Shown one piece after another: positions 1 to 40,490 of a DNA stretch of 57,621 nt. The notes beneath the pieces were generated by a model. It did no database searches. It was not told where the DNA came from and was given only the letters and a program-made list of their open reading frames with translations. A program made the translations under genes and the position numbers. The DNA comes from Parcubacteria group bacterium GW2011_GWA2_47_21 (lineage in GTDB: Bacteria > Patescibacteriota > Minisyncoccia > Phycocordibacterales > DSPV01), in assembly GCA_001000545.1 (NCBI GenBank), contig LCOC01000004.1:1-57621 (forward strand). The letters run 5' to 3'. Within the stretch, counting starts at the first letter, position 1. Each line of letters begins with the position of its first letter.

Positions 1-792
1 AAGGCAAATCTTCTGCAGTTTAAAGACGAAAAGTTTGACAGAATTTACCACCTCGCGGCTTGGACCAAGGCCGGCGATTTTTGCCTCTATCATCAAGGCG
101 AGCAATGGATCATCAATCAGCAGATTAACACCAATGTTTTATGGTTTTGGAAGGAATTTCAATCGCAGGCGGTTTTGGTTGCGATGGGCACGAGTTGCGC
201 TTACCCTCAAGGGGAGATGAATCTGAAAGAGGAAGATTATATGGCTGGCGAACCGGACAAAGATTTGTACACGTACGCCATGACCAAGCGAATGCTTTAC
301 ACTGGTTTGCTAGCCCTCAATCATCAGTTTGGTTTTAAGTACCGGTATCTCATTCCTTCTACACTCTATGGAACTTTGTTTGAAAAGCACGACCACCATT
401 TTATTTTTGACTTAATTGCAAAGATTCATGCCGGAAAAACGGAAGGTAAGGATGTGGTTTTGTGGGGGACGGGTCAGCAAGTTCGGGAGCTTATATATGC
501 GCCTGACGCGGTTAGATTAATTGATGCCGCGGTCAATCGGCAAGAGAGTGACATTCTTAATCTCGGAGTAGGCAGAGGCTACACCATTCGGGAATACGCG
601 GAGATGATTTGCAAAATCATCGGCTATGATCACCAAAAAATAAAGTATGATACCACGCACCCATACAGTGGTATGAAGAAGCGTGTGCTTGATACTTCTA
701 AAGTAAAAAAACTTTTTCCTGATTTCAAGTTTACCTCTCTAGATAAAGGGATTGAAGTTACTGTTGATTACTACCTGTCAATTTATAGATAA
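1..792 (+). CDS. GDP-L-fucose-synthase-like NAD(P)-dependent sugar epimerase/reductase (5' end outside window)
   Basis: Frame 1 is open from nt 1 (KANLLQFKDEKFDRIYHLAAWTKAGDF...), so ORF-track 175..792 is only the C-terminal part. It has the extended-SDR catalytic YxxxK (YTYAMTKRM) and a VVLWGTGQQVRELIYAPD block typical of GDP-fucose-synthase-type 3,5-epimerase/4-reductases. Confidence 0.75.
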   Translation, partial: KANLLQFKDEKFDRIYHLAAWTKAGDFCLYHQGEQWIINQQINTNVLWFWKEFQSQAVLVAMGTSCAYPQGEMNLKEEDYMAGEPDKDLYTYAMTKRMLYTGLLALNHQFGFKYRYLIPSTLYGTLFEKHDHHFIFDLIAKIHAGKTEGKDVVLWGTGQQVRELIYAPDAVRLIDAAVNRQESDILNLGVGRGYTIREYAEMICKIIGYDHQKIKYDTTHPYSGMKKRVLDTSKVKKLFPDFKFTSLDKGIEVTVDYYLSIYR

Positions 793-801
793 GATTATCG
801 T

Positions 802-829
802 TTGACTTCCATAGAGCGTTAAATATACT
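802..829 (+). promoter_or_regulatory. sigma70-like promoter candidate TTGACT-N16-TATACT
   Basis: TTGACT at 802-807, a 16-nt spacer, TATACT at 824-829. The ATG at 836 lies only 6 nt after the -10 box and has no Shine-Dalgarno, so a leaderless start is possible. Confidence 0.25.
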
Positions 830-835
830 TGTGTG

Positions 836-1309
836 ATGAAAGAAAAGAAATCTGGTGGAAAAATACAATTATTCAATCCCTCCTGCAACCTAAACACCAT
901 TAAGGATGGCCGCGGAGCCATTTTCTCATTCGTGCCGGACGTGCCGATTGTAGAGTGGACGCATCAGTTTATCAAAGCTGGTAAAGCGCGCGGCAATCAT
1001 TGCCATCCTGAATTTGACGAATATATTATGCTTGTCGACGGCGCGGGAGTTGAAGTTGAAAAAGACACGAAAACCGACAAGGAGCATTTTATTTACATGA
1101 ATAAAGGCACCTGCATTTTTATTCCCAAAGGCACCTATCATGTTTTTTTAGCTATTAGCGATTGCCAGTCAGTTTCTTTTTTGACGAAGCGTTGGGATGA
1201 TTGTAAGCGACCTATCGTTCATGCTGACTTAGGACTTGGAAGTGGCGATCATGGCGATCCAAAAAGCGTCTACTTCAAAACTCAAAATAAAGACAGCAAA
1301 CATGTTTGA
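836..1309 (+). CDS. cupin-fold sugar-nucleotide epimerase/ketoisomerase-like protein (RmlC/FdtA/WxcM-like)
   Basis: DGRGAIFSF, GKARGNHCHPEFDEYIMLVDG and IPKGTYHVF are cupin barrel/His motifs. ATG at 836 chosen over GTG at 833. Confidence 0.55.
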   Translation: MKEKKSGGKIQLFNPSCNLNTIKDGRGAIFSFVPDVPIVEWTHQFIKAGKARGNHCHPEFDEYIMLVDGAGVEVEKDTKTDKEHFIYMNKGTCIFIPKGTYHVFLAISDCQSVSFLTKRWDDCKRPIVHADLGLGSGDHGDPKSVYFKTQNKDSKHV

Positions 1310-1315
1310 AATAGT

Positions 1316-2317
1316 ATGCCAGTTAGATTTGGAATCATCGGTTGTTCGAGAGTAGCCATGCGGCGGTTTCTGCCGGCGTTGGTTTCGTCGCCTCTGGCCA
1401 AGTTAACTTTTGTTGGCAGCCGCGATAAAAAAAAAGCCAAGCAATATGCCGAGGAATTTGGGGCGCAAAAATTTGGCAGTTATGAAGATGTCTTGGCAAG
1501 CAAAGAAGTGGATGCCGTTTACATTTCCACCCCGCCTCTTTTACACGCCGAGTGGGTTAAAAAGGCAGCTAGCGCTGGCAAGCACATAATTTGCGAGAAA
1601 CCATCCTTTCCAGATTACGAGACAACTTCGGGAATTATTTCTTTCTGCCGCGGGGCCAGCGTGCGTCTATTTGAGAATTACGCTTTTTTGTATCATCCCC
1701 AACACAAAGCGGCCCGCGAGCTATCCAGTCGCGTCGGCCAGGTTTCCTCAATTGAAGCGGTATTTTTGTATCCCAACCCGCCCGGGGGAGATATCAGGTG
1801 GCGACCGGAACTCGGCGGCGGAGTTTTCCATGATTCTTTTGGTTATCCGATTGCCACCGCGCTTCATTATTTCGGCGAGTTGCCGGAATCAGTAGAGTGC
1901 ACTCTCACCGTTGATCAGTTGCACCAGATTGATACCGCCGCTAAACTAGGTCTTTCTTGGGGTGATGGGAGACAAGCCGCAGGTAGGATAGCCATGGGCG
2001 AGGAAGGTTATTCTTCGCGTTATATTTTGCGGGGCCAAGATGGTCAGGTAGAAGTATGTCGGGCCTTTGCCGTTGATAGCGATAAGCCGACGGAAATTGC
2101 GTTTGAAACCGGTGATAAAAAAGAAATTATCCAAGTTAAGCCGGCAAGCCAGTTTCAGCTTGCCTTGGAGGATTTTTGTAAAACTATAGTTGGCGAAGTC
2201 CGCCGGCTCTTTGAGGACGATATTTTGGCTCGGGCCGCTGTTAAGGAGGCGGCCCTACGCTCCGCAAGGGCTGGTAAGCCGGTATTTCTTTCGGAGATAG
2301 GTTTTAGGAAAAAATAA
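1316..2317 (+). CDS. Gfo/Idh/MocA-family NAD(P)-dependent sugar oxidoreductase
   Basis: N-terminal Rossmann strand VRFGIIGCSRVAMRRFLPAL and the family EKP motif (HIICEKPSF). 333 aa. The 3' end overlaps the convergent kinase gene by 14 nt. Confidence 0.8.
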   Translation: MPVRFGIIGCSRVAMRRFLPALVSSPLAKLTFVGSRDKKKAKQYAEEFGAQKFGSYEDVLASKEVDAVYISTPPLLHAEWVKKAASAGKHIICEKPSFPDYETTSGIISFCRGASVRLFENYAFLYHPQHKAARELSSRVGQVSSIEAVFLYPNPPGGDIRWRPELGGGVFHDSFGYPIATALHYFGELPESVECTLTVDQLHQIDTAAKLGLSWGDGRQAAGRIAMGEEGYSSRYILRGQDGQVEVCRAFAVDSDKPTEIAFETGDKKEIIQVKPASQFQLALEDFCKTIVGEVRRLFEDDILARAAVKEAALRSARAGKPVFLSEIGFRKK

Positions 2318-3284
2318 TCTGCGAGCCCGGGGCGTTGATTTTTATCGGTAAGACATATTTGGGCGAAAAGGTCTTCTTAAGACGCGAGTGAACCTTTGGG
2401 TCGGCAAAGAAAAGTAAGAAACCTCCCCCGCCCGCCCCCAAAAGCTTTCCGCCCCAAGCCCCCGCGGCCAGCCCTTTCTTATAAAGCTTGTCTATCCTTC
2501 CATTTGAAACCCCGCCGTCCAGTGAACGTTTTTTCTCCCACGCTTCGTTTAGAAGCTCGCCAAACTTCCGAAGCGGTTTCCCGTTCGTTAAAATCTCGTA
2601 GCCGTCATAAGCCATTTTTTTCATAGCTCTTAAGGCGGGGATGTTGTCCTTGACTTTCTTAAGTTGGTGGGCCGTAACATCCGAGGCGTTTCGGACTATA
2701 CCGGTGTAGACCAGAAACAAATGATTTTCCAAATTTGCGAGCCGTTCAAGGGAAAGTGGCACACGATGAACATGAAAGTCCTGTTCCGTCCTAAACTCAA
2801 TTAAATTAAATCCGCCAAATGCCGCTGCCACCTGATCTTGGCAGCCGACTTTGGCTTTAACGCGGTGTTTTTCCACAAAGATTGCTTCGCGTGCCAATTC
2901 CTTCGGGGTTAAGAATCTTTTTTTAAAACTCATAAGGGCTTGGAGAGTGGAGACAACCAGCGACGATGATGAACCAAGTCCACTGAGTGCGTGAGTGTCA
3001 AAGGCGCTATGGAGAGCAATGTCTTTTTCAATTTCCGCGTGTTTGAGGCATTCTCTGAAGATATTGTGTTCTACCTCATCTATTTTTTTCGCCAGTTCCA
3101 CGCTGCTGTAGGAAAGCCGAATGGCGTACTCGTACATATGGCTGGGAAAGTAATTGGCGGTAGTGTACACGAATTTATCAATCGCAGTGGAAAGCACCGC
3201 GCCGCCCTCTTCAAGGAAAAACTCGGGGTGGTCGGTGCCGCCACCAAAAAAACTTATGCGAACTGGCGCTCTGGCGATTATCAT
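2304..3284 (-). CDS. GHMP-family sugar kinase, D-glycero-alpha-D-manno-heptose-7-phosphate kinase (HddA)-like
   Basis: N-terminus MIIARAPVRISFFGGGTDHPEF, GHMP motif II SGLGSSSSLVVS, C-terminal GAGGGGFLLFF. Confidence 0.8.
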   Translation of the reverse strand: MIIARAPVRISFFGGGTDHPEFFLEEGGAVLSTAIDKFVYTTANYFPSHMYEYAIRLSYSSVELAKKIDEVEHNIFRECLKHAEIEKDIALHSAFDTHALSGLGSSSSLVVSTLQALMSFKKRFLTPKELAREAIFVEKHRVKAKVGCQDQVAAAFGGFNLIEFRTEQDFHVHRVPLSLERLANLENHLFLVYTGIVRNASDVTAHQLKKVKDNIPALRAMKKMAYDGYEILTNGKPLRKFGELLNEAWEKKRSLDGGVSNGRIDKLYKKGLAAGAWGGKLLGAGGGGFLLFFADPKVHSRLKKTFSPKYVLPIKINAPGSQIIFS

Positions 3285-3308
3285 TGGTGAAAAATAATAC
3301 TAAATCGT

Positions 3309-3410
3309 GAATTACGAAATGCAAAATTTTAGGTCCTCGGGTCGTAAAATCCCTAATTCTTAAAGGAGATTTTGCTCAACCGGACCATAAAATTTTGCGT
3401 TTCGTAATTC
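3309..3410. repeat. long imperfect palindrome (about 28-nt arms) in the hddC-like/hddA-like spacer
   Basis: Left arm gaattacgaaatgcaaaattttaggtcc (3309-3336) pairs with ggaccataaaattttgcgtttcgtaattc (3382-3410) with few mismatches. It shares the 14-mer aaatcgtgaattac (3302-3315) in inverted orientation with 38121-38134. Confidence 0.7.
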
Positions 3411-3416
3411 AAAGTA

Positions 3417-4151
3417 CTAAACATAATTTTTTATAAGACCGTTTTCAAACATCTCATTGGCCATTTTGTAGCGCTCCGGTACGCCGATGTCTATAAATAT
3501 GTCGTCGGTTTCAAAACCAAAACAGTTGTGTTGCCAAAGAGTAGGGAAGAGGTCATTTTCAAGAGAAAATTTCTGCTCCTTTGGCAAGAGTTTGGACACC
3601 GCGCTGTCAAAAAGGTAAGTGCCGGCGTTAAGGGGAAGCTCTTCAGGTTGGTCTTTCTCGGTTTTAAGTCGCCAGCCGATCACTCGTTTGGTTTCGTCAA
3701 TTATGACAACATTACCGCCACTGCCGACATAACGGCGGGTTAAAGCCATGGACATAAGAGCATTTCTTCGTTCGTGGAATGTTCGGAGGAGCGCAAAATT
3801 TGGACGGTAAACCGTGTCGCCGTTCATGACGAAAAAGTGCCTGGCATCGCCCACATAATCAAGCGCCTTCTTTAACGCGCCGCCGGTTCCAAGCGGCTCT
3901 TCTTCTTCAGATAAAATAACTCGATAGTTGTTTTTTTCAATGTGTTCTTTTATGTGTTCTTTCAAATATCCGACGCTTAGAATTATTTTTTCAAAACCGG
4001 TCTTAATAAACATCCCAATAATAATATCAAGCAAAGTACTGCCGCCAATCGGGGCGAGTACCTTAGGTCTGTTTTTCAATACAGCTTGTATTCTCGTGCC
4101 CAAGCCGCCGCACAGCACGATTACCGGTATTTCTTTTAATGATTTGCTCAT
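3417..4151 (-). CDS. sugar-1-phosphate nucleotidyltransferase, heptose-1-phosphate guanylyltransferase (HddC)-like
   Basis: VIVLCGGLGTRI nucleotidyltransferase signature, EEPLGTGGAL, 244 aa, directly upstream of the HddA-like kinase on the same strand. Confidence 0.8.
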   Translation of the reverse strand: MSKSLKEIPVIVLCGGLGTRIQAVLKNRPKVLAPIGGSTLLDIIIGMFIKTGFEKIILSVGYLKEHIKEHIEKNNYRVILSEEEEPLGTGGALKKALDYVGDARHFFVMNGDTVYRPNFALLRTFHERRNALMSMALTRRYVGSGGNVVIIDETKRVIGWRLKTEKDQPEELPLNAGTYLFDSAVSKLLPKEQKFSLENDLFPTLWQHNCFGFETDDIFIDIGVPERYKMANEMFENGLIKNYV

Positions 4152-4465
4152 CGCGGATTAAGCATAGCCGAAAAATAGGCCGCTGAAAATTTGACAGGTT
4201 ACCACGACTACTCATTTACCGGCCGATTGGCTGAAAGCTATCGTGATGTCACGTTACACGCTGACTCATGCATCATACTTACTGATGCAACTATGGATGA
4301 TCGTGGTGGGGAAAGAGCTGAATTCGCCGTGGGTAGACTCATAATTCCAAAAGGACAACTACAGGCACTTTCAATAGAGGAGGATAGCACTTCGCCACCC
4401 ATCTTGCCGGCAGGCAATCAAACGGCGTGACTTGTTGGGTATTCCGGTAAAATTTAGTTTCTATA

Positions 4466-4495
4466 AACCTCGAGATGGTACCCCCGAGGTTTTTT
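4466..4495. terminator. A-tract/stem/T-tract hairpin, probably a bidirectional terminator
   Basis: aacctcg (4466-4472) pairs with cgaggtt (4485-4491) across a 12-nt loop. T6 follows on the + strand and an A-tract precedes it. It lies 13 nt beyond the stop of the minus-strand epimerase gene. Confidence 0.5.
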
Positions 4496-4507
4496 ATTTG
4501 GATGTGT

Positions 4508-5446
4508 TTAGATATTTGAGTATGGGTTGCTCCGGAGAATTGTGTAGCCCTTGATGAGTTCAGCGATACCATCGTCAAGGGACCATTTTGGTTTGAATCC
4601 TGTTTTGGCGATTCGGGCGTTGGAAATAATGTAGTCGCGTTTGTCGGGGTCTTCACCGATCGGCGCTTCAAGGTACACAAATTTCGGCAGATGTTTTTTG
4701 ATCGCCGCAGCCAATTCCAGTTTTGAAAGATTGGCGTCATCGAGTCCCACATTGTAAGACCCCCCCTTCATTTTTTGAAAATTTTTTATTCCGTGAATAA
4801 ATACCCGGACGACATCGCGAATATGAATATAATTTCTTTTAAAGTGACCCTCAAAGATAACGAGCGCCCGATCGGTAACGGCGCGGTATACGAAGTCGTT
4901 GACCAGCAAATCTAGCCGCATTCTAGGCGACATGCCGAACACTGTGGCCAGCCGAAAGCTCAAGCTGTTTTCTCTCTGGAGCACCACTTCTTCCGCTTTC
5001 ACTTTTGTAATTCCGTAAAGAGAAATCGGCCTAAGGGGAGATTCCTCGGTGCAGAATTTTCCTTTCTCGCCGATACCGTACCCGCTGTTGGTTATGGGAA
5101 TGAGGACTTTCTGGTTTTTACTGGCCAATTTGCAGAGCATTTTTACCGCTTCAAAGTTCGTCGTCTCGGCGGCAATTTTATTTTGGTCGCAAAGCGGCGC
5201 GCCGACAAGCGCCGCCAAGGGGATTATTATGTCGGCGTTTTTAAGAAGCGGCTTTACGATTTTTTCATCGCGGCAATCGCCGCGCACAACATTGAAATTT
5301 TTGTACTGACAACAATCCGCCAAACTGTTTTGACGGAACATAAAATTATCCAGAACAGTTACTCCATATCCTTCCTCTAGAAGCGTTGGCGTCAAAACAG
5401 ACCCTATATAACCCGCCCCACCTGTGATAAGAATTTTTTGCGCCAT
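4508..5446 (-). CDS. NAD-dependent nucleotide-sugar epimerase/dehydratase (extended SDR)
   Basis: KILITGGAGYIGS Rossmann motif and YGITK (YxxxK). Start trimmed from 5482 to the ATG at 5446 (MAQKILITGG). Confidence 0.85.
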   Translation of the reverse strand: MAQKILITGGAGYIGSVLTPTLLEEGYGVTVLDNFMFRQNSLADCCQYKNFNVVRGDCRDEKIVKPLLKNADIIIPLAALVGAPLCDQNKIAAETTNFEAVKMLCKLASKNQKVLIPITNSGYGIGEKGKFCTEESPLRPISLYGITKVKAEEVVLQRENSLSFRLATVFGMSPRMRLDLLVNDFVYRAVTDRALVIFEGHFKRNYIHIRDVVRVFIHGIKNFQKMKGGSYNVGLDDANLSKLELAAAIKKHLPKFVYLEAPIGEDPDKRDYIISNARIAKTGFKPKWSLDDGIAELIKGYTILRSNPYSNI

Positions 5447-5486
5447 AGTATTCTTGGAGAATAACACAAAAAAAGGTCGCATCCCC

Positions 5487-5514
5487 TTGCTATTTTCTAT
5501 TATTCATGTATTAT
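5487..5514 (+). promoter_or_regulatory. sigma70-like promoter candidate TTGCTA-N16-TATTAT
   Basis: TTGCTA at 5487-5492, a 16-nt spacer, TATTAT at 5509-5514. It points into the + strand two-gene cassette. Confidence 0.3.
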
Positions 5515-5671
5515 ACATTGCGGTAAAGTTCTTCACAACAAAACAACAAGACGTATAAATATGTCTAAAAAACCGGAAATTCGGTATCTCATTTCTCGGA
5601 GCGAGCAGAGCATTTTCACCGAAATTTACTTCCCCAAAAGAGCAACATACTAGGGCACTATCTTTGACGCC

Positions 5672-6352
5672 TTGCGTAATGGTTATAAAGAGACGGTAGT
5701 CAGAAAATACATGGAAACTAATGTGCCGGTACTACTTGAGGAGTACCGAGCTTATCTCGCGCTCTTTGACCCGAATGATTACACAACAACGCGAAGAGTA
5801 ACCACCCCCGTTTCCGCTGATAAAGCGCGCGAACGCATCAAGATGTATCGGTCGCCATTTAAGGGCTGGTCCACTTATAGTGTGGATGGTGTTTTCTTTG
5901 ACGAAAAGAATAAGATGTACGAGGAAGCAGTCCAGGTGGTGCGCATCATGTTTCGGTTCCAAAGTTCTTTCGCTCCCGTAGCGGAAAAATTAGGATTTAG
6001 TGATGTCCCGCGGTGCATTCTAGTGTGGCTCATTACCCGACAAGGGCGACTGGCTAGCCACAAAATGTGGTTTGAAAGCGAGAAACGGCTCTTCATAGCA
6101 AGTCAGCCGCCGCTTTCCAAACGCAAACGCGCCTTTGTGGAACAACACTTCACTGGCATCGCCAAAGAAGCGAATAAGTGGATTGATGACCGTGGACTTT
6201 TTCTCTTTGGTTACTTAGTCCACAAGTTTGCGGATAAAGTGCTTGCCGAACAGCTTTTCGAAAAAGAGATTTGGGCGACCAATCTCTTCAACCAAAACCT
6301 TATCGTTACCAGCCGTGTTGGAAACGATACAAATCGCATAACCCAGAAATGA
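5672..6352 (+). CDS. hypothetical protein, no recognisable family
   Basis: 226-aa ORF on the strand opposite to the flanking sugar genes. The ORF-track start is TTG and the first ATG is at 5711. An in-frame 30-codon ORF (5561-5653, MSKKPEIRYLISRSEQSIFTEIYFPKRATY) sits upstream, separated only by a TAG. Confidence 0.5.
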   Translation: MRNGYKETVVRKYMETNVPVLLEEYRAYLALFDPNDYTTTRRVTTPVSADKARERIKMYRSPFKGWSTYSVDGVFFDEKNKMYEEAVQVVRIMFRFQSSFAPVAEKLGFSDVPRCILVWLITRQGRLASHKMWFESEKRLFIASQPPLSKRKRAFVEQHFTGIAKEANKWIDDRGLFLFGYLVHKFADKVLAEQLFEKEIWATNLFNQNLIVTSRVGNDTNRITQK

Positions 6353-6362
6353 AAGGAAAAGT

Positions 6363-6662
6363 ATGATTCATCCCAAAGTCAAAGCACTCGTTCAGGAAGT
6401 GTTCAGTTGGTTTGGCGAAGAAGAAGGCAAGCGCGCCGGAGAATATCCGGAAGCTTACCTAGTATCTTTGTTGGAAGAAATCCAAGAAAGACTACCTGAG
6501 GTGTCGGCAATGCTCGACTCAACGGTTGATATGGCGAGATTCGGCTTTGATACGGAAAGATTCAAAAACACACTCGCCAAAATGCAAGTGGAAGAAAAGT
6601 CCCAGCATCGCGTCAATAAAGGACAAACCAAACGCCGGCGTTTGAAAAAAGCTAGCGCTTAA
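6363..6662 (+). CDS. hypothetical small protein (acidic body, basic KRRRLKK tail)
   Basis: 99-aa ORF 10 nt after the previous stop, with an AGGAAA-type RBS (gaaaggaaaagtATG). A hairpin terminator follows. Confidence 0.5.
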   Translation: MIHPKVKALVQEVFSWFGEEEGKRAGEYPEAYLVSLLEEIQERLPEVSAMLDSTVDMARFGFDTERFKNTLAKMQVEEKSQHRVNKGQTKRRRLKKASA

Positions 6663-6682
6663 CCTCTTGTTGTGTTCTTTCA

Positions 6683-6711
6683 AGCCCTGTTCAGTTGGAC
6701 GGGGCTTTTTT
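6683..6711 (+). terminator. rho-independent terminator candidate
   Basis: agccctgt (6683-6690) pairs with acggggct (6699-6706) across an 8-nt loop, followed by a T-run. Confidence 0.5.
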
Positions 6712-6717
6712 ATTCCA

Positions 6718-7701
6718 TTATTTTTTATCCCCGCGGGTCATGTAATCGGCAAGATTGGCTTCGGCAAAATCCAAATTACTTTTCCACCAATCAATTGTCT
6801 TTTTGAGTCCTTGGCGAAGTGTGTGTTTTGGCCGCCAGCCGAGTTTTTGCCGAGCAAGCGAAATATTACCCGACATTTTCATAATTTCATTTTCCCGCAT
6901 CGGCACCGCGCCAAAAAATGGTTTTACTGGATTGCCCATCAAGTCAAGTGTTTCGGTTACAATCTCTTTTACCGGGACGCCAACGCCTGAACCGATATTA
7001 AGGATGGAACCATCAGCGACATTTTTCGTAGCGGCAAGCATAAGTGCGTCTATAATGTCGTCAATATAAGTTGGGTCTCGTTCTTGCGTGCCTGATGTTA
7101 GGGAGAGGTCCTTGCCTTTGAGCGCGGAGAGGATGATGTTGGGGATTAAACGCGCTGGATGTTCCCACGGCCCGTACGGTAAAAAGAAACGAAGTTCAAC
7201 GGTTGGCAGTCCATACACTTCGGCGTAAGTTCTTACAATCGTGCTCGTCGCCGCTTTGGCGGCGCCGAAAATTGTGTTAGGGGTAAATGGGGAATTTTCT
7301 TTTAAATTATTACCGGAGCCATAGACCGCTGCCGAGCCAGTATAAACAAACCGTTCTGGTTTTTGCTCCCGCAATGCCTCCAGTAAATTGATTGTACCGA
7401 TGCAGTTTACCTCAATGTGTTTTTGGGGCGAAGTAGCCCATGAAGTAGATGCGAGATGAAATACCAGATTCGGCTTGACTCGCTTAACCGTGTCTTTGAT
7501 AGCCGTGGCGTCAAGTACATCACCTTTAACCAACCGGACTTTCTTTCCAAGGTTTTTAAGCCGCACTAAATCTGGTGCCGGCAAAGAAAATACCGTAACT
7601 TGATAACCTTCCTTTATCAAGCGGTGAACTAAATTAATTCCAATTGCCCCCGCGCCGCCTGTAACGAGTGCCTGTTTTGCTGCTGTTGTTTTGCTAGACA
7701 T
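6718..7701 (-). CDS. NAD-dependent nucleotide-sugar epimerase/dehydratase (UDP-glucuronate decarboxylase / 4,6-dehydratase-like extended SDR)
   Basis: ALVTGGAGAIGINLV Rossmann motif, YGAAKAA (YxxxK), 327 aa. Confidence 0.85.
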   Translation of the reverse strand: MSSKTTAAKQALVTGGAGAIGINLVHRLIKEGYQVTVFSLPAPDLVRLKNLGKKVRLVKGDVLDATAIKDTVKRVKPNLVFHLASTSWATSPQKHIEVNCIGTINLLEALREQKPERFVYTGSAAVYGSGNNLKENSPFTPNTIFGAAKAATSTIVRTYAEVYGLPTVELRFFLPYGPWEHPARLIPNIILSALKGKDLSLTSGTQERDPTYIDDIIDALMLAATKNVADGSILNIGSGVGVPVKEIVTETLDLMGNPVKPFFGAVPMRENEIMKMSGNISLARQKLGWRPKHTLRQGLKKTIDWWKSNLDFAEANLADYMTRGDKK

Positions 7702-7720
7702 GAAAATCCTTTAGTTTTAA

Positions 7721-8518
7721 TTATTCGCCACCGGCAACCGTGATAATTTGGCCGGTCGTGAAATCGCTGGCGCTTGAGCAAAGAAAAAGCGCAAGATGGG
7801 CGATTTCTTCTGGATTGCCCGCGCGGGCCAAAGGAATCATCCTTATTCTTTCCCGATTTTTTTTCTCGCTGTAGCCCACAAACTTTGTATGCATTGGTGT
7901 ATTGATGTTACCACAACGAATCGCGTTGACGAGTATATTATGCTTCGTGCCCTCTTTCGCGAATCCGAGCGTTACGGCTTCAAGGGACGCTTTGGAGGAA
8001 TAATAGTGCATGATGTTTGGGCTCGCATACTTAGTTGCATTAGTACTGATATTAATGATTCGTCCCCACTTTTGCCGAGTCATATTGGCGAAAGCTTTTT
8101 GAGATAGGACGAACGATGCCTTGGCGTGCAACGCAAACATATCATCCCAGTTAGTTTCAGTGAGTCTACTAAAATGTTTGTACTCAAGAATCGCTCCGGC
8201 GTTATTGATAAGGATATCAATGCCGCCGAATTTATTTATAAATTTTGAAATAAGGTTTGCCCTGACATTTCTTTGCAGCAGGTCTCCTTTAAAAAGTTCT
8301 CCTTCGCCGCCCGCCGATTTGATTTCTCGCAAGACATTTAAGGCTGAATTTTTAGAATTTCGATAGTGTATGCCGATTTTAGCGCCGTGTAGCGCGAATA
8401 ATTTGGCCATTGTAGCTCCAATACCAGACGAGGCGCCGGTTATAAGCACCCGCTTGCCGCTGAGAGAATCATATGGAGACAGCGCCGTATTTTTCTTTAA
8501 ATTCTTTGAATGAGCCAT
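7721..8518 (-). CDS. classical short-chain dehydrogenase/reductase
   Basis: VLITGASSGIG, NNAG and YSSSKASLE motifs. The ORF-track N-terminal extension to 8752 overlaps the upstream gene, so the start is trimmed to ATG 8518 (MAHSKNL). This still overlaps the upstream stop by 50 nt. Confidence 0.8.
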   Translation of the reverse strand: MAHSKNLKKNTALSPYDSLSGKRVLITGASSGIGATMAKLFALHGAKIGIHYRNSKNSALNVLREIKSAGGEGELFKGDLLQRNVRANLISKFINKFGGIDILINNAGAILEYKHFSRLTETNWDDMFALHAKASFVLSQKAFANMTRQKWGRIINISTNATKYASPNIMHYYSSKASLEAVTLGFAKEGTKHNILVNAIRCGNINTPMHTKFVGYSEKKNRERIRMIPLARAGNPEEIAHLALFLCSSASDFTTGQIITVAGGE

Positions 8519-32573: not shown

Positions 32574-33257
32574 ATGATACCCAAAGCGATTGTTTTTGAT
32601 TTTGACGGCGTTTTGACGGTTGGCGGCGAGGGATTGAAACAGCAGGCGTGGGATATTCTAGCGTTGCCCTGGCATGAAGCCAGTGTTGCCAGATTATCGG
32701 CTAAACGGCAGAAAATTTCTGGCGGGAAAAGGTCTCGCTACGATATTCTGGAAGAGACATTTATGGCGTTTGGAGGAAGTGAGGTGGATATTCTCACGGC
32801 CGCTTACGCCGACTGTTACAACTCCATTGTTCAGCAACTTCTGGAAAAAAGCGGCATGCCGGAAGGCACCGTTGAGGTTTTGGAAGAACTATCCAAACTC
32901 TGCCCGCTTTTCGTGAATTCCGCTACGCCGGAGAAGGCGGTGGAGGAAAGTGTTGTTAAGTTTGGCGTCAGGAAATATTTTACTGGAGTGTACGGACAAC
33001 CAACCGGTAAGGTGGACAATCTGAAACGCGTGCTCGCGGTTGCCAACCAGTTGCCGGGTCCTCTGGATGTGCTACCGCGCTCAATCGTCTTTGTGGGCGA
33101 TGGCAACAATGACCGCAAGGCGGCGGAGGAATTCGGCTGTCGTTTCATCGGAATCGCTAACGATTGGAATAAATGGGGAATTGGTGAGGCACCGGATTTT
33201 CCTGTTGTAGCCGATATCCGGTCTGTGCCGGATATTGTTGAGACCTTTCGCGATTGA
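32574..33257 (+). CDS. HAD-superfamily phosphatase
   Basis: Motif I IVFDFDGVLT and motif IV VGDGNNDRKAAE. A GGAGG RBS lies 8 nt upstream. Confidence 0.8.
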   Translation: MIPKAIVFDFDGVLTVGGEGLKQQAWDILALPWHEASVARLSAKRQKISGGKRSRYDILEETFMAFGGSEVDILTAAYADCYNSIVQQLLEKSGMPEGTVEVLEELSKLCPLFVNSATPEKAVEESVVKFGVRKYFTGVYGQPTGKVDNLKRVLAVANQLPGPLDVLPRSIVFVGDGNNDRKAAEEFGCRFIGIANDWNKWGIGEAPDFPVVADIRSVPDIVETFRD

Positions 33258-33297
33258 GCAGACTCTTGAGTTTTTTCAATGAAATTATGATTTTTTC

Positions 33298-33329
33298 CAA
33301 ACCGCCGCTTTATTGTGCGACGGTTTTTT
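33298..33329 (+). terminator. rho-independent terminator candidate
   Basis: accgccgc (33301-33308) pairs with gcgacggt (33317-33324) with one mismatch, followed by a T-run. Confidence 0.5.
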
Positions 33330-33369
33330 CTTTGTTATGATTTGCCAGTCAATATTGTTCTAAATTTGT

Positions 33370-35090
<1,721 letters not shown>

Positions 35091-35170
35091 GCAGAAATAT
35101 ATTCTGATGTTCTTGAGAACACTAGAATATACCAAGCTTATATTTAGTTGTTGGAGTTTTTTTATTGAGT

Positions 35171-35699
35171 ATGACAACCACCTTTTATTTAATCAGACAC
35201 GCGGAAAGCCTTGCCAAGGAAAAAGGTATTGTCCAAGGCGCTGGCCTTTCGCAGTCAGGCAGTTAGAGCCATTGAGACCGCAAAGCCAGTCCGGGCGCTT
35301 TTTCCCGACACGCCATACTCGGAACATGCCGAGCTTAATGAGCGGTCAAAAGGCGAGGCCGAAGGGATGACAAAGGAAGAATTTAAACGGCGCTATCCGG
35401 AGATTCAGGCGGCGTGGGCGAGAGAAGAGGACCCGCGCGTGTCGGGCGGCGAGAGTTTCGCTGATGTTGAAAAACGAGTCATGCCATTTTTGGAGAAACT
35501 TGCGAGCGAACAAACGGGCAAGCGTTTGCTTTTAATTTTTCACGGTAATGTCATTCGGGTAATTCTCGGGGCGATTCTTGGCGCGCCCGCCAATTTTCGG
35601 CACAGGATTAAACAAGATTACTGCGCGCTGAATGTAATTGAGTATGATGACGCCGATTGCCGTAGGTCTATTCTTAAAGTTAATGAAACCCTCCTCTGA
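35171..35699 (+). pseudogene. histidine-phosphatase (phosphoglycerate-mutase-like) family gene, frameshifted
   Basis: MTTTFYLIRHAESLAKEKGIVQGAGLSQSGS stops at 35264-35266. The continuation QAVRAIETAK...LLLIFHGNVIRVILGAIL lies in the +1 frame (ORF-track 35211..35699). Confidence 0.55.
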
Positions 35700-35702
35700 A
35701 AT

Positions 35703-36770
35703 ATGGATTTTCTTTCAAAAAGAGAGGTAAATGAATTGTTGGAGGAAGAATACGGTTTTCGCGTTCAAAAAATTGATGAGCCGAGGATTACGGAATCGGG
35801 CATCACCTTTCTCGTTTTTTTGGATAAAGGCGGCAAAGTAATCGTCAAACAAACGCATTGGTATGACTTTGCCGACAATCCTAGGGCTATACTTGAGAAA
35901 GTGCATTCGGTTGGCAATAATATTAAAAATCGGGGAGTGAAAGTGCAAGCGGCGCATCAAGCGCGAGGCGGCGGTTATGCTCGCTTTAGAAACGGCGCGC
36001 CAACCCTCGTTTTGCCGTATTTTGAAGGCCGGAGTTTTTCGGGGGCTGATGCGGATATTTTGGCTGCGGGTTTCGCTCTGGCTTCTTTTCACAAAGCCGG
36101 GGTTGAATTTCTGAAAAGTAATAAAGATGAATACGAGAACATACGGAAGACCATTCCCGTAGAAAAACCCTATGAGGAGTCCGTTGAACTATATAAAACG
36201 GAAATGCGAAGCGTCTTAAAGCGAACGCACGATTGCGCTGAAAAGGAGATTTGCGCTTTAGTGAGGGCTTCTACTCCCGCGATTGATGAGGCAATTGATT
36301 TTATAAGCCGCGCGTTTGATGAAGAAAAAAATCTTGCGAAAGGCATTATTCACACCGATTTTAATTTTAACAACGCCGTCTACGACGAGAGCGGCGCGGC
36401 GGCTATTATTGATATTGACCATTTGAACGTGGGGTGTTTGGGGGCGGACATCGGGAACGCTTTGGCTTCTTTTGTCTCCCGACTCAAGAAAATGGGCAAG
36501 GATGAGCCCGCCGAAAAAATCACCACTCTGTTTTTCTCGGCGTACCACAAATCCAATCCGTTGTCTTTGCTTGACTACAAACTCGCTTTGCCTTCCATAC
36601 AGAGGACGAGCGTGACGCGGATTCTCCGAATCATGCGCCGGCATCATTTTGAAAATAATCGTTTGCCGGAGATGATGAAAAAAATTCCGGATAGATTTCT
36701 GGCGCGTCTCAAAGATTCTCCAAAGGAATTTTCTTTTTTGACCAAAGAGTGGTTGCGAAAAATTTTCTAG
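35703..36770 (+). CDS. aminoglycoside/choline-kinase-fold phosphotransferase (APH family)
   Basis: Brenner-type catalytic loop IIHTDFNFNNAV followed by IIDIDHLNVG. 355 aa. Confidence 0.7.
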   Translation: MDFLSKREVNELLEEEYGFRVQKIDEPRITESGITFLVFLDKGGKVIVKQTHWYDFADNPRAILEKVHSVGNNIKNRGVKVQAAHQARGGGYARFRNGAPTLVLPYFEGRSFSGADADILAAGFALASFHKAGVEFLKSNKDEYENIRKTIPVEKPYEESVELYKTEMRSVLKRTHDCAEKEICALVRASTPAIDEAIDFISRAFDEEKNLAKGIIHTDFNFNNAVYDESGAAAIIDIDHLNVGCLGADIGNALASFVSRLKKMGKDEPAEKITTLFFSAYHKSNPLSLLDYKLALPSIQRTSVTRILRIMRRHHFENNRLPEMMKKIPDRFLARLKDSPKEFSFLTKEWLRKIF

Positions 36771-36856: not shown

Positions 36857-37978
36857 TCAACCTTTGAGTGTAATGAGCACGATGCCGATAATGACGGCTA
36901 CGGCAACCCCAATTCTTAACAGTTTTTCTCCGGTATTTTGACCTTCTCGGAGGACATAAATGCCGTAGAAAGTGCCGAAGATCGCTGCGGCGCGTTTGAT
37001 GCTGGCGTAATAATTGACATTTGCACCGAAGAGCGCCACATTCATGACTAGGATTACGGCGCCATACACCAAGCCCACCCTTAAGAATTCGCGCCAGTAG
37101 CTTTTGAAGACAAAGCGCATCCTTTCAATACCACCTTGTTTGAGTGTCCAACCAAGGGTTATCGCGACGACTACGAGAGACATCACAATTCCGGCCAGGA
37201 AGGGGTTGGCGCTGTCAATGGCCACCTTGTCAAAGTTAACAGCAACGCTTGCAATGACTGTCGCCAATATCCCTGAAGCGACCGGGTGGTTGGCAAAAAA
37301 ATCACCCTTTGGCGCTTCATCCGGCGGCTTCCTCTTATTGGCTAACACACTGAGAGCCACTGCTGCCACCACAATGATGATTCCTGCGAATCCGGCGGCA
37401 CTTACGGACGGATTGCCGATTGGCGCGCTGTCGCCAATCAGTTGGTAGACAATGATAGATATCGGCAAAACAAAAACTGGCGACAAAGCCCAGGTTACCG
37501 ATACAAGCGAAACATCGCCGTAACGCATCCCTTTGGTTAGAAAATAAAAGATGCCTACATTTAGCACCCCCGTGCCAAGTATTGACCAAAAGAAATGTGA
37601 GCTTTTCAAGTCAAGAATTATTTGCTCGCCGTAGAGAATCGGCGACAACGCCAACGCTCCGATGAAGAGCACGAGCGCCACCACCGGGTAATAACCCATT
37701 AGTGTCTCATGGTCCTTGAGATGTAGGTTTGGATTGGTTGTCACCCTAGGGTCTTTGAGACCGGGGAAATTGGTCTTGACCATCGGCTGGAACAGGAAAC
37801 CGGTAATCATTGCTCCGAAAAGAAGGAGCGCCGTCCACCAAACATTTTGAAATATTTGGGTGTTAGCAATAATACCCACTACCGCGCCGATTTTGGACAT
37901 GACAAGCAGGATGAGGTAAACAAACGTAATGACGCGGGTAATGTTGCGCCGATTGGCCAGAGAGTTCGGTGTATTCAT
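36857..37978 (-). CDS. polytopic membrane protein, EamA/DMT-superfamily-like permease
   Basis: About 10 predicted TM helices. The C-terminal half (ASIKRAAAIFGTFYGIYVLREGQNTGEKLLRIGVAVAVIIGIVLI) matches the EamA repeat pattern. Confidence 0.5.
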   Translation of the reverse strand: MNTPNSLANRRNITRVITFVYLILLVMSKIGAVVGIIANTQIFQNVWWTALLLFGAMITGFLFQPMVKTNFPGLKDPRVTTNPNLHLKDHETLMGYYPVVALVLFIGALALSPILYGEQIILDLKSSHFFWSILGTGVLNVGIFYFLTKGMRYGDVSLVSVTWALSPVFVLPISIIVYQLIGDSAPIGNPSVSAAGFAGIIIVVAAVALSVLANKRKPPDEAPKGDFFANHPVASGILATVIASVAVNFDKVAIDSANPFLAGIVMSLVVVAITLGWTLKQGGIERMRFVFKSYWREFLRVGLVYGAVILVMNVALFGANVNYYASIKRAAAIFGTFYGIYVLREGQNTGEKLLRIGVAVAVIIGIVLITLKG

Positions 37979-37994
37979 ATCTTTAATTATTTTT

Positions 37995-38126
37995 AATTAC
38001 AAAACTCCCGAAGATGCGTAATTTTTGGAAACTCTCGGAGCGCGACGGTGCGAGAGGGAGCTAAAAATTCAGTAGAATTTTATAGCGTTCTCCAAAAATT
38101 ACGCGCCGAGGAAGAGTTTTGTAATT
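37995..38126. repeat. about 130-nt imperfect palindrome in a divergent promoter region
   Basis: aattacaaaactcccgaagatgcgtaatttttggaaac pairs with gttctccaaaaattacgcgccgaggaagagttttgtaatt. The central stem is ctctcg/cgagag. Confidence 0.7.
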
Positions 38127-38240
38127 CACGATTTAATTATGTCAAAGAAGGTGATGTTTGTCTTTTTTCTAAAATAATATTAATTCCATAAAAAAGTAAA
38201 TGATTTGGCCGATTTCAAGCGGCGTGCTATATTTTCAGGC

Positions 38241-40490
38241 ATGTTGAATCTTTGGCTAAAGAGAATTGTTTTTACCGGAATTTTTCTCGTGCCCTTTGTG
38301 CCGCTTGTGGTGACAGAGTCGCTTTTTTTTCCTTATATCACGGGAAAGGCCTTTGTCTACCGGCTGATTGTAGAAATTATTTTTTCGGCGTGGCTTATTT
38401 TGATGATTAAAAACCCGGTCTACCGGCCGCGGATGTCTTTTATTCTCAAGGCCTTCGCCGCTTTTATTTTCCTGATTGCCGTTTCCGACGCCCTGAGTCC
38501 GAACGCTTTCAAAAGTTTTTGGTCAAACTTTGAGCGGATGGAGGGTTGGGTGGCTTTAATTCACCACCTCGGATACTTTCTGGTGATTGGCAGCATGCTT
38601 GCCGGCGAAAAGCTCTGGCGGAGATTTTTTGACACCTCTATTGGCGTTTCTTTAATTGTTACCGGCTACGGCATTCTCCAGCTGTTTGGCGTTTTCACCA
38701 TCAATCAAGGCGGAGTCAGGGTTGATTCCACTTTCGGCAACGCCGCCTACTTGGGCGTTTACACGCTATTTCACATCTTTCTCGCGGTTTTCTTTTTGAT
38801 GCGCGAGCGGCTTCATTCTTGGCGGCAGTATTTTTACGGCGCGGCTATTGCGCTCAATCTTATTATTCTTTATTTCACCGCCACCCGCGGCGTCTTCATC
38901 GGCCTTTTTGTCGGGGTTTTGGTCTCGGTTGGATTACTCGCCCTCTTTGAGAGGGAAAATAAAAAATTAAGGAAGATTTTCGCCGGCGCCCTCATCGCCC
39001 TCTTTGTATTCGTAGGCTCAATTTTTCTTCTTAAAGATACCGCGCTCATAAAAGCCACCGGCCCTCTTAATCGCATCGCTTCAATCTCGCTTAACGATGC
39101 CAATGTGCGCTTTAACATCTGGAAAATCGCTTTTGCAGGTTTCAAGGAGCGGCCGATTTTCGGCTGGGGGCAGGAGAGCTTTAATTATGTTTTCAACAAG
39201 CATTACCATCCGTCTCTCTACGGTCAAGAGCAGTGGTTTGACCGGACCCACAATATTGTTTTTGACTGGCTTATTGCCGGCGGCTTGCTTGGACTTATTG
39301 CTTACTTAGTCCTATTTGCGGCCGGCCTTATTGCCGTCTGGAAAGGGGAGCCCCCGCGATTCCACTGGATAAAAGCGGCAAAAATTCGCGGCTGGTTGGA
39401 GCGAATTTTTGGAGCGGATAATGGCGGTTTGGGCGTCAGAGAGAAGGCGGTCTTGACCGGTCTCCTTGCCGGCTATTTCGCCCAAAATTTTTTCGTTTTT
39501 GACCAGATAGGAAGTTACATTCTTTTTGCCTCGGTTCTTGGCTATCTTCACTCTCGTGTGGCGGAGCCGCTCCCCGACCGCGTTCATAAAGCGCTCTCTT
39601 TGGACCGCGGCGCTCTCAATCGCCTGGTGATTCCAGTAGTGACCCTCGTTTTCGTTTTTTCGGTTTATTTTGTGAATGCCAAAGGATTTATGACTGCTCG
39701 GACTCTCATTAAGGGCTTTCAAAGTTACCCCAATGAAGGCGCTGAAAAGAATTTGACGCTTTTTAAGAAAGCCGCTTCGTATGAAGCGTTGGGAAAATCA
39801 GAGGTGCGAGAGCAAATTTCCCAGGCGGCCTCAAGAGTGCTTGCCACCAAGGAGGCGAGTTTGGCTTTGAAACAATCCTTTTTTGACGCCGCTCGCTCTG
39901 CCTTGATGAAACAAATTGAGGAGGCGCCCGGCGATGCGCGTTATTATCTTTTTCTCGGCTCTTTTTTTAATCAGGCCGGCGCCTTTGAAGAGGCGAGGGC
40001 TTATCTTGGTAAGGCCTTGGAGCTTTCCCCGCGCAAACAGATGATTATTTTTGAGATTGGCTCCAGTTATTTTGCCGAGGGCAAGACAGCGGAAGCGCTC
40101 GCCGCTTTCAAGGAGGCGTTTCTGCTTGAGCCGAAGTTCTCCGAAGCGAGACAGCTTTACGGACTTATGGCGATTTACAATCGAGACCTCAAGTTAGCTG
40201 AAGAAATTCTTGTTCCGGCTTACGGCACGGCTCTGGTGGCTGATGACAGGTTTATCAACGCTTACGATAAGATAGGGGATAAAAAGGCCGTGCTTAAAAT
40301 TTGGCAGAACCGGGTGGGTATTTTGCCGGACAACGCCGATTGGCGGGTCTCGCTTGCGGCGGCTTATCTGGCGGCGGGCGAGAGGCAGAACGCGCTCAAA
40401 GAGCTTGAGGAATCGGCGCGGCTCAATCCGGATTTAAAAGAGCGGGTTGAATATTATATTAAGGAGATAAGGGCGGGGAGGAATCCTTAA
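38241..40490 (+). CDS. O-antigen-ligase-like (Wzy_C) polytopic membrane protein with C-terminal TPR repeats
   Basis: Multiple TM helices, YFTATRGVFIGLFVG and FDRTHNIVFDWLIAGGLLGLIAYL Wzy_C-type blocks, and a C-terminal ~250 aa of TPR-like repeats (ARAYLGKALELSP, ALAAFKEAFLLEP, ALKELEESARLNP). ATG 38241 preferred. Confidence 0.75.
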   Translation: MLNLWLKRIVFTGIFLVPFVPLVVTESLFFPYITGKAFVYRLIVEIIFSAWLILMIKNPVYRPRMSFILKAFAAFIFLIAVSDALSPNAFKSFWSNFERMEGWVALIHHLGYFLVIGSMLAGEKLWRRFFDTSIGVSLIVTGYGILQLFGVFTINQGGVRVDSTFGNAAYLGVYTLFHIFLAVFFLMRERLHSWRQYFYGAAIALNLIILYFTATRGVFIGLFVGVLVSVGLLALFERENKKLRKIFAGALIALFVFVGSIFLLKDTALIKATGPLNRIASISLNDANVRFNIWKIAFAGFKERPIFGWGQESFNYVFNKHYHPSLYGQEQWFDRTHNIVFDWLIAGGLLGLIAYLVLFAAGLIAVWKGEPPRFHWIKAAKIRGWLERIFGADNGGLGVREKAVLTGLLAGYFAQNFFVFDQIGSYILFASVLGYLHSRVAEPLPDRVHKALSLDRGALNRLVIPVVTLVFVFSVYFVNAKGFMTARTLIKGFQSYPNEGAEKNLTLFKKAASYEALGKSEVREQISQAASRVLATKEASLALKQSFFDAARSALMKQIEEAPGDARYYLFLGSFFNQAGAFEEARAYLGKALELSPRKQMIIFEIGSSYFAEGKTAEALAAFKEAFLLEPKFSEARQLYGLMAIYNRDLKLAEEILVPAYGTALVADDRFINAYDKIGDKKAVLKIWQNRVGILPDNADWRVSLAAAYLAAGERQNALKELEESARLNPDLKERVEYYIKEIRAGRNP

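Follow-up and report, generated by a model that had tools for sequence, protein, structure and literature searches.

A variable glycan-biosynthesis island beside a conserved Wzy_C-TPR ligase gene in a Parcubacteria genome, and its possible part in fibre glycosylation

The DNA analysed here is a window of 57,621 nucleotides from contig LCOC01000004.1 of Parcubacteria group bacterium GW2011_GWA2_47_21, and it is made up of two units, a variable glycan-biosynthesis island and a conserved Parcubacteria backbone. The backbone carries the gene of a polytopic Wzy_C-domain protein with tetratricopeptide repeats (TPR), hereafter Wzy_C-TPR, and the island's gene run includes a pair of secreted proteins, a putative fibre and a partner with peptidoglycan (PG)-binding domains. 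The question discussed is whether Wzy_C-TPR could transfer glycans to this fibre. Bacteria of the Candidate Phyla Radiation (CPR), whose genomes measure about 1 Mb, are believed to live attached to hosts; to our knowledge, almost nothing has been reported on their surface chemistry, and in this case over 40 kb of a single contig serves a decorated glycan. Coordinates are positions of the window, and L-numbers denote related contigs or loci used for comparison.

Genes of the locus and the boundary between its two units

About 50 open reading frames (ORFs) of the window were scanned with Pfam and NCBIfam (Table 1), and Pfam recovered all the gene classes of an initial annotation at the coordinates given there. 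That annotation had taken 1-40490 for one island. Its parts are in place, but its unity is contradicted by L081, a 273-kb contig with the closest relative of the Wzy_C-TPR protein (60% identical), which keeps the backbone without the island. The gene order of L081 is PF02348 cytidylyltransferase, His_Phos_1, APH kinase, Wzy_C-TPR, MurB, SecA, phosphatase, enolase, AI-2E transporter, VTT, MYG1 and Obg, with RecG and a cation ATPase upstream, where the window has its island. Because of this difference the island boundary is placed near 34.4 kb. The island runs from before position 1 to about 34,450 and extends at least 8.7 kb leftward of the window, and the backbone, with its cytidylyltransferase, phosphatase, kinase, Wzy_C-TPR, MurB and SecA genes, starts at about 34,500. 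The Wzy_C-TPR ligase is a gene of this core neighbourhood and not of the island.

The island appears to be a real, heritable module, since its core order (two TagF-like genes, the carbamoyltransferase and, further on, GT9, the ABC exporter and a TagF-like gene) recurs in L086 and L087. Identical genes are also present on groundwater-metagenome contigs. The + strand gene run of 18557-32269 noted initially was confirmed, every gene from 18542 to 36770 being on that strand. Between 17 and 36.9 kb, promoter-like sites did not exceed shuffled controls and terminator-like sites fell mostly within genes; tRNA and Rfam scans gave no match, and hence no tRNA-linked integration signature. In the 8.7 kb to the left of the window (L165:1-9477), a GmhB-like HAD phosphatase, an E1-type thiamine-enzyme pair (E1_dh alpha subunit and transketolase-like beta subunit), a TylCIII-type C-methyltransferase, an aldo-keto reductase and further short-chain dehydrogenases/reductases (SDRs) together suggest the synthesis of a branched-chain or C-methyl deoxysugar.

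Two stretches present in the sibling assemblies L082-L084, all three from the same population, are missing from the window, one of 112 bp (~34602-34609) and one of 79 bp (~35247-35251). Both gaps cause frameshifts, leaving 168 instead of 238 aa in the PF02348 cytidylyltransferase and 162 instead of 203 aa in the His_Phos_1 protein, and they reflect either faulty assembly of a stretch that differs between strains or pseudogenes peculiar to this strain. The trio of cytidylyltransferase, histidine phosphatase and APH kinase (34496-36770; L081:7236-9839) is conserved directly upstream of Wzy_C-TPR even in L081, which lacks the island. By analogy with LicA/LicC, the trio hints at a small activation pathway, of kinase and cytidylyltransferase, that may serve the ligase system.

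Table 1. Features of the window and their coordinates (AF2, AlphaFold2; GT, glycosyltransferase; NDP, nucleoside diphosphate; TM, transmembrane)
Coordinates	Strand	Product	Remarks
1-792	+	SDR reductase, GDP-L-fucose-synthase-like	Pfam Epimerase; NCBIfam Fcl-like below cut-off; 5' end beyond window, 315 aa in sibling contig L165
833-1309	+	Small cupin, weak FdtA/WxcM-like match	
1316-2317	+	GFO/IDH/MocA sugar oxidoreductase	
2304-3284	-	GHMP sugar kinase	Best match HddA, far below cut-off
3417-4151	-	Sugar-1-phosphate nucleotidyltransferase	Best match HddC, below cut-off
4508-5482	-	SDR epimerase/dehydratase	
5672-6352	+	Protein without assigned function, kept with island	81% identical in syntenic island L088, 68% in L089
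6718-7701	-	SDR, NDP-sugar 4,6-dehydratase-like	
7721-8752	-	Short-chain ketoreductase	True start probably downstream of that listed; 265 aa in L166
8469-9044	-	RmlC-like 3,5-epimerase	
9062-9841	-	Methyltransferase (Methyltransf_23)	
9683-10780	+	GT2 glycosyltransferase	Soluble, no predicted TM helix
10804-11460	-	O-methyltransferase (Methyltransf_3)	
11198-12958	+	TagF-like paralog 1	Listed start probably over-extended
13132-14517	+	TagF-like paralog 2	Modelled with AF2, pLDDT 93
14638-16503	+	NodU/CmcH-type O-carbamoyltransferase	
16496-17488	+	Methyltransferase	
17538-18476	-	D-2-hydroxyacid dehydrogenase (phosphoglycerate/glyoxylate-type)	
18542-19462	+	FkbM-type methyltransferase	
19469-20851	+	TagF-like paralog 3	Divergent, no Pfam match
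20811-22271	+	TagF-like paralog 4	
22268-23161	+	FkbM-type methyltransferase	
23171-24346	+	GT9 (heptosyltransferase-family) glycosyltransferase	
24415-26232	+	ABCB-type half-transporter exporter	Transmembrane and nucleotide-binding domains
26229-27635	+	TagF-like paralog 5	ATG overlaps ABC stop codon (ATGA)
27756-29297	+	NeuB-family ulosonic-acid synthase fused to C-terminal cupin	Cupin lyxose/mannose-isomerase-like
29457-30422	+	Secreted Ser/Thr-rich fibre protein	Patescibacteria-only family
30459-31544	+	Secreted Ser/Thr-rich protein, two PG_binding_1 domains	Conserved downstream partner of fibre gene
31613-32269	+	Methyltransferase	Homolog within Wzy_C - fibre cluster of L207
32574-33257	+	HAD phosphatase	
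33370-34452	+	GFO/IDH/MocA oxidoreductase	Last gene ahead of backbone
34496-35090	+	PseF-like CMP-sugar cytidylyltransferase (PF02348)	Start approximate; disrupted by 112-bp gap
35088-35699	+	Histidine phosphatase (His_Phos_1)	Disrupted by 79-bp gap
35703-36770	+	APH-family small-molecule kinase	Backbone gene
36857-37978	-	Polytopic membrane protein, EamA-like	~10-11 TM helices; absent from closest relative L081
38241-40490	+	Wzy_C/WaaL-fold ligase, 13 TM helices, predicted external C-terminal TPR domain	Parcubacteria core gene
40776-41858	+	360-aa protein without assigned function, between Wzy_C-TPR and MurB genes	Recurs by Wzy_C/fibre clusters (L001, L192, L203)
42355-46034	+	MurB and SecA	Backbone markers

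The Wzy_C-TPR protein and its link with a fibre gene

The initial annotation of 38241-40490 as an O-antigen-ligase-like protein with a TPR domain is supported by the Wzy_C domain (PF04932), which scored 73.2 bits against a Pfam gathering score of 31.7, by the TPR repeats C-terminal to it, and by a WaaL-type fold found with Foldseek. The best non-TPR match of an AF2 model built from 41 homologs (pLDDT 89, pTM 0.85) is WaaL (7tpg_B), with an E of 8.4e-5 and a target-normalised TM-score of 0.61 over 468 aligned columns. A PDB sequence search with the full protein was dominated by TPR matches, and NCBIfam gave only a weak match to IctB. R216, R290 and H337 are invariant in the 41 homologs and all lie on the predicted outer side. 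Their spacing is that of residues important for function in Escherichia coli WaaL (R215/R288/H338) and Neisseria PglL (R224/R298/H349) (PMC3643930), the match being one of spacing and not of residue-level superposition. The model has 13 transmembrane (TM) helices; Lys and Arg abound in loops 2, 4, 6, 8, 10 and 12, and the triad is borne by a loop of 75 residues on the opposite side. As the even loops are positively charged (positive-inside rule) and the helices number 13, the N-terminus is predicted inside and the TPR domain outside, which agrees with the extracytoplasmic position proposed for the latter at the outset. In the literature we found no study characterising Wzy_C/O-antigen-ligase proteins in Patescibacteria.

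Among GTDB genomes there are 409 relatives of Wzy_C-TPR; all those listed belong to Patescibacteria, and the nearest of those with names are Candidatus Taylorbacteria. In the 80 closest loci, SecA is syntenic in 57, MurB in 46 and TagF-like genes in 6, and island genes are sporadic. SDR genes are more frequent near Wzy_C-TPR than in the fibre loci described below (30/80 vs 2/50, p = 6e-6). The three ORFs directly 5' of the gene were scanned in 44 related loci (132 ORFs), and were found to include Epimerase/GDP_Man_Dehyd (16), Polysacc_synt, the Wzx-type flippase family (14), GT2 (7), ABC_tran (6), ABC2_membrane (5) and GT1 (4) proteins, together with methyltransferases and nucleotidyltransferases. 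The Wzy_C-TPR orthologs stay 35-60% identical while the adjoining glycan gene sets differ. Because a conserved gene stands beside varying glycan clusters, the protein appears to behave as a relaxed-specificity enzyme of the WaaL/PglL kind, and not as a repeat-unit Wzy polymerase. The varying upstream clusters, each with its own flippase or exporter, lend indirect support to a logic of export followed by transfer.

Both products of 29457-31544 carry a hydrophobic segment at the N-terminus, and Ser+Thr make up 24-28% of their residues, as expected for the two secreted Ser/Thr-rich proteins described initially. The fibre family has 95 detectable homologs, and every source-named match, as well as every genome locus recovered, is from Patescibacteria. 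The fibre protein has a Sec-type signal peptide followed by a conserved mature N-terminus (AATTISTNIxTGGTLxVTG), fibre-like repeats of variable length and a conserved C-terminal domain with two invariant cysteines. Its neighbourhood was examined in 50 genome loci, with 43 recognised fibre genes. A PG_binding_1 gene homologous to that at 30459 lies directly downstream of 31 of the 43, mostly after a gap of 4-63 bp. In 13 of them the immediately preceding gene, in the same orientation and 29-290 bp away, encodes Wzy_C(-TPR). Of the 50 loci, 19 have a homolog of Wzy_C within 10 kb, compared with about 7% assumed by chance (binomial p = 4e-10). This adjacency is the strongest new evidence for the hypothesis that the fibre may be the acceptor. 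In the window itself, the fibre and Wzy_C-TPR genes are 7.8 kb apart.

A larger cluster also recurs, with a PG-binding protein of ~1200 aa, a small TPR protein, one or two Wzy_C-TPR genes, the fibre and a PG-binding protein, often followed by Ig-like surface proteins. In L206 the order is Wzy_C-TPR ... fibre - PG-binding - MurB ... SecA; L175 follows it as far as SecA, no MurB being recognised there. In a neighbour-joining tree, the single-copy, fibre-linked Wzy_C-TPR genes of these two loci branch as a basal grade outside the MurB/SecA-linked clade of which the window gene is a member, which tentatively suggests that the linkage to the fibre is ancestral.

Several other genes touch on these neighbourhoods. 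The small TPR protein of the fibre clusters was considered as a detached TPR domain of the ligase and was rejected, given that BLAST revealed no significant similarity. The methyltransferase of 31613-32269 has its L207 homolog inside a cluster of the form large PG-binding - TPR - Wzy_C x2 - fibre - PG-binding, and an 83%-identical copy in a Taylorbacteria TagF-like locus (L094). Homologs of the IS200/Y1-type transposase of the window (54343-55017) adjoin the fibre and PG-binding pair in L172, L199 and L204, which are unrelated Parcubacteria loci, and such an element might explain the movement of the pair among genomes. The EamA-like protein, divergent from the Wzy_C-TPR gene, could act in the transport or flipping of small sugars that are lipid-linked or nucleotide-bound. 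The product of 40776-41858 gave no match in Pfam, NCBIfam or PDB, and its homologs are also present in five TagF-like loci.

Island enzymes and their putative donors

The 1-9044 region holds SDR epimerases, dehydratases and reductases, a GHMP kinase, a nucleotidyltransferase and an RmlC-like epimerase. The GDP-heptose (HddA/HddC) route first assigned to it is only partly supported. HddA and HddC are the best NCBIfam matches of the kinase and the nucleotidyltransferase, at scores far below the cut-offs (144 bits vs 600 and 123 vs 300, respectively); the GmhB-like phosphatase (158 bits vs 178) lies just left of the window; and neither the window nor the 8.7 kb preceding it yielded a SIS/GmhA protein. 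Of the enzymes of the heptose pathway (GmhA, HddA, GmhB and HddC), three out of four are therefore plausible, and the complete route is unproven. The product of 5672-6352 is much more conserved than its enzyme neighbours in the comparison with L088 and L089. Pfam and NCBIfam recognise seven methyltransferases in total, two of them FkbM-type.

The initial annotation had also counted five GT-B-like transferases. Five mutually homologous proteins, starting at 11198, 13132, 19469, 20811 and 26229 and sharing 22-30% identity, are indeed present, and are better described as distant relatives of TagF, TarL and Cps3D (PF04464). Four of them reach this family, with 27-48 bits against a gathering score of 22.1, and that at 19469 has no match. 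A profile of the paralog family matches TarL, a ribitol-phosphate polymerase (7.7e-6), and Cps3D, a TagF-like capsule polymerase (1.4e-5); a PDB search with a single paralog retrieved only TarL, at E = 0.14. The AF2 model of paralog 2 has a GT-B fold whose matches include TagF, MshA and UDP-GlcNAc 2-epimerases, with about 12% identity in the fold alignment to TagF. One histidine is common to all five (H388 of the 13132 product) and at least 90% conserved in a 41-sequence family. It aligns with a non-His position of TarL; the catalytic histidines of TagF are H444 and H548, named in PDB variant entries, and no residue-level alignment to TagF was obtained. The likeness to the TagF/TarL/Cps3D polymerases thus lies in PF04464, the TarL and Cps3D profile matches and the GT-B fold, whereas the relationship is here very distant, five paralogs share one locus, and the window has no CDP-glycerol or CDP-ribitol supply genes (TagD, TarI/J), carrying a PF02348 PseF-like cytidylyltransferase instead.

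The TagF-like family is widespread in Parcubacteria. In the 77 loci that carry it, the companions are a PF02348 (PseF/KdsB-type) cytidylyltransferase in 38, SDRs in 26, NeuB in 21, a 2-hydroxyacid dehydrogenase in 19 and GT9 in 17. One paralog also shows a weak NCBIfam match to the BFO_1060 family. The nonulosonic-acid transferases of Tannerella forsythia have a TagB-type domain, and they share with the present family an association with CMP-sugar synthetase genes (PMC5420450). We infer that at least some of the paralogs use cytidine-nucleotide-activated donors, which could be CMP-ulosonic acid. The latter could come from the NeuB-cupin synthase, the HAD phosphatase and the cytidylyltransferase, and a Kdn- or Kdo-like acid would be likelier than Pse or Leg, because no aminotransferase or acetyltransferase is present. 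One possibility is that the NeuB-cupin fusion couples a sugar isomerase to a Kdn-like ulosonic-acid synthase. The architecture of this fusion is the same in L087, and close homologs occur in L091 (65% identity) and L145 (61%). Linked as it is with CMP-sugar synthetases, the TagF-like family is a candidate new class of transferases.

The stop codon of the ABC gene (TGA, 26230-26232) overlaps the in-frame ATG of paralog 5 at 26229, which bears out the ATGA coupling reported initially. The transporter had been called MsbA/PglK-type; its ABCB half-transporter architecture holds, and a PglK specificity does not, since the best NCBIfam matches are HepA (329 bits vs 725) and MsbA (322 vs 602), with PglK at 230 vs 1000, all of them below cut-off. 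A PDB search returned eukaryotic ABCB1-type full transporters as top matches, which are uninformative on substrate. Judged by its sequence, the protein is a generic ABCB-type half-transporter.

The statement that every class of part for a lipid-linked glycan route is present does not hold. Scans of the window, of the adjoining 8.7 kb on the left (L165) and of the syntenic islands L086 and L087 revealed no initiating polyprenyl-phosphate phosphoglycosyltransferase (WbaP/PglC or WecA/TagO type), Wzx or LCP enzyme; an initiating enzyme may lie elsewhere in the genome. No lpx or kds genes occur within the window.

A possible fibre glycosylation system and its known counterparts

We propose that the island builds and exports a decorated polymer, and that lipid-linked glycans are passed on to the fibre, perhaps also to the PG-binding partner, by the WaaL-fold TPR ligase. 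In this scheme, the island would make unusual NDP-sugars and, through the NeuB-cupin, HAD phosphatase and PseF-like cytidylyltransferase genes, a CMP-activated ulosonic acid. The polymer would be assembled in the cytoplasm by the GT2, GT9 and five TagF-like enzymes, the last probably with cytidine-nucleotide-activated donors, and would be O-methylated and O-carbamoylated before export via the ABCB-type transporter. At the outer face of the membrane, the Wzy_C-TPR enzyme would take a polyprenyl-diphosphate-linked glycan and transfer it en bloc to Ser/Thr residues of the secreted fibre, possibly also of the PG-binding partner, with the TPR domain docking the protein acceptor. The donor, the acceptor and the lipid carrier are putative, and it is mainly adjacency that speaks for the island as the source of the donor glycan. 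We give the proposal as a whole a probability of about 0.45. The similar scheme in the initial annotation is partly supported. The fold, triad and predicted topology of the ligase and the Wzy_C - fibre linkage agree with it; the PglK identity of the flippase and the membership of the ligase in the island are not supported, and neither an initiating enzyme nor a PglL_A motif was found.

Several observations weigh against this proposal. The nearest relative of the ligase lacks the island, and of the 77 TagF-like loci no more than 9 include Wzy_C-TPR at a distance of up to 10 kb. Use of a lipid carrier has to be assumed, because the window, the stretch to its left and the two syntenic islands gave no initiating phosphoglycosyltransferase. 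In this assembly, the cytidylyltransferase and phosphatase genes are disrupted. In related genomes the genes are linked where Wzy_C precedes the fibre (13/43), but none of the 80 closest Wzy_C-TPR loci has a fibre or PG-binding gene within 10 kb, the linkage being confined to deeper-branching orthologs and to paralogs, as placed by the neighbour-joining tree; and in the metagenome-assembled genome Gr01-1014_17 separate contigs carry the island that most resembles the present one (L088) and the Wzy_C - fibre cluster (L173). Ser/Thr-rich secreted proteins, considered as a general feature of such islands, were rejected, as they occur in 2 of the 77 TagF-like and 2 of the 80 Wzy_C loci. Moreover, a Pfam scan at E<=1e-3 gave only Wzy_C and TPR families, with no PglL_A motif (PF15864), a motif that is likewise absent from PilO (PMC3643930).

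Part of this evidence would also fit a ligase with a non-protein acceptor, a membrane glycolipid anchor or the peptidoglycan itself, that fixes the polymer to the wall, the fibre and PG-binding proteins then being wall neighbours that bind the polymer or depend on it. WaaL acts on lipid A-core, and LCP enzymes attach teichoic acids. The WaaL-like fold with its catalytic triad, the missing PglL_A motif, the adjacency of murB in 46 of the 80 closest loci, the PG_binding_1 domains of the partner proteins and the TagF-like enzymes, typical of wall teichoic-acid-type polymers, all fit such an activity. Against it, the same-strand position next to the fibre gene is the pattern of pilin-dedicated oligosaccharyltransferases (OTases), TPR domains usually bind proteins and the window has no lipid A genes, so that we regard this explanation as unlikely. 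We are similarly sceptical that the island and the Wzy_C-TPR/fibre module are independent, with a teichoic-acid-like or capsule-like polymer anchored or released by unlinked enzymes at what would be a hot spot for glycan genes. Such independence would account for the bare backbone of the closest relative, for the separate contigs of L088 and L173, for the 9/77 loci and for the missing initiating transferase; yet differing glycan clusters with their own flippase or exporter stand repeatedly upstream of Wzy_C-TPR, SDR genes are enriched there, and the fibre pair of the window lies within the + strand gene run of the island.

Two further functions of Wzy_C-TPR seem still less probable. Membership in the Wzy_C family and the Wzx-type flippases frequent upstream (14 of the 132 ORFs) would suit a Wzy-type polymerase joining repeat units of the exported glycan. 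Wzy polymerases, however, co-vary with their repeat unit, whereas this protein keeps 35-60% identity beside differing glycan genes and matches WaaL and PglL in fold and triad; furthermore, since the window uses an ABC exporter, the polymer would be completed in the cytoplasm. A polymerase is in our opinion very unlikely. We attach the least weight of all to lipid II as donor, by which fibre and PG-binding proteins would be coupled covalently to the wall in a sortase-independent manner. Conserved murB adjacency and the PG-binding domains of the partners agree with it, and a WaaL point mutant is reported to attach peptidoglycan to lipopolysaccharide (PMC4296511), but the variable glycan clusters with Wzx or ABC exporters beside the Wzy_C-TPR gene point to variable glycans.

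If fibre glycosylation as proposed is correct, the CPR would have its first defined system of protein glycosylation, with a concrete, clonable enzyme-substrate pair (38241-40490 with 29457-30422 and 30459-31544), and the strain-variable islands would be explained as a source of surface diversity. A broader idea, rather doubtful at present, is that Parcubacteria carry an ancestral machine for fibre O-glycosylation, composed of a 13-TM WaaL-fold TPR ligase, its cognate fibre and a PG-binding anchor, upstream of which islands are interchangeable. That of the window would use the new TagF-like family on CMP-ulosonic-acid donors, and the exchange of islands would give strain-level diversity to an appendage probably used for host contact.

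The nearest functional counterparts are PilO/TfpO and PglL, which are polytopic Wzy_C-domain enzymes with an Arg/Arg/His triad, often encoded beside the gene of their fibre-subunit substrate; pglL homologs stand beside pilin genes in 21 of 31 cases, and pilO adjoins pilA (PMC3643930). They transfer glycans en bloc from undecaprenyl diphosphate on the outer face of the membrane, as would be expected here. In contrast, the Wzy_C-TPR protein, a predicted enzyme of a Patescibacterium, lacks PglL_A and has an extra 13th TM helix and a predicted external TPR domain of ~250 residues. Nor is the neighbouring fibre a type IV pilin; it has a Sec-type signal peptide, the AATTISTN motif and a C-terminal domain that contains cysteines.

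TfpW of Pseudomonas aeruginosa, a polytopic OTase for pilin whose gene adjoins pilA, resembles Wzy_C-TPR in its large C-terminal TPR domain, periplasmic in TfpW and predicted to be external in the window protein, and, as regards the relatives with the Wzy_C - fibre arrangement, in the fibre-subunit gene at its side, but it has a GT-C/ArnT-like fold and a polyprenyl-phosphate-arabinofuranose (D-Araf) donor, whereas the window protein has the WaaL/Wzy_C fold. WaaL (PDB 7tpg) shares the 12-TM core, the large external loop with the triad and the role of a conserved enzyme serving hypervariable glycan clusters; it differs in that the window offers no lipid A-core context, and in that Wzy_C-TPR has an added TM helix, the TPR domain and a gene linked to fibre and PG-binding genes.

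As in the scheme proposed here, S-layer O-glycosylation in Paenibacillus and Geobacillus (WsfB/WsaB) combines cytoplasmic glycan assembly, ABC export and a Wzy_C-type OTase acting on a surface protein in a monoderm-type envelope. Those clusters encode an initiating WbaP-like enzyme and a Wzm/Wzt-type ABC-2 transporter, whereas in the window no initiating enzyme was found and the exporter is ABCB-type. Taken together, these comparisons indicate nothing categorically new, and place the protein as a variant of the Wzy_C-type ligase/OTase in a lineage where none has been characterised.

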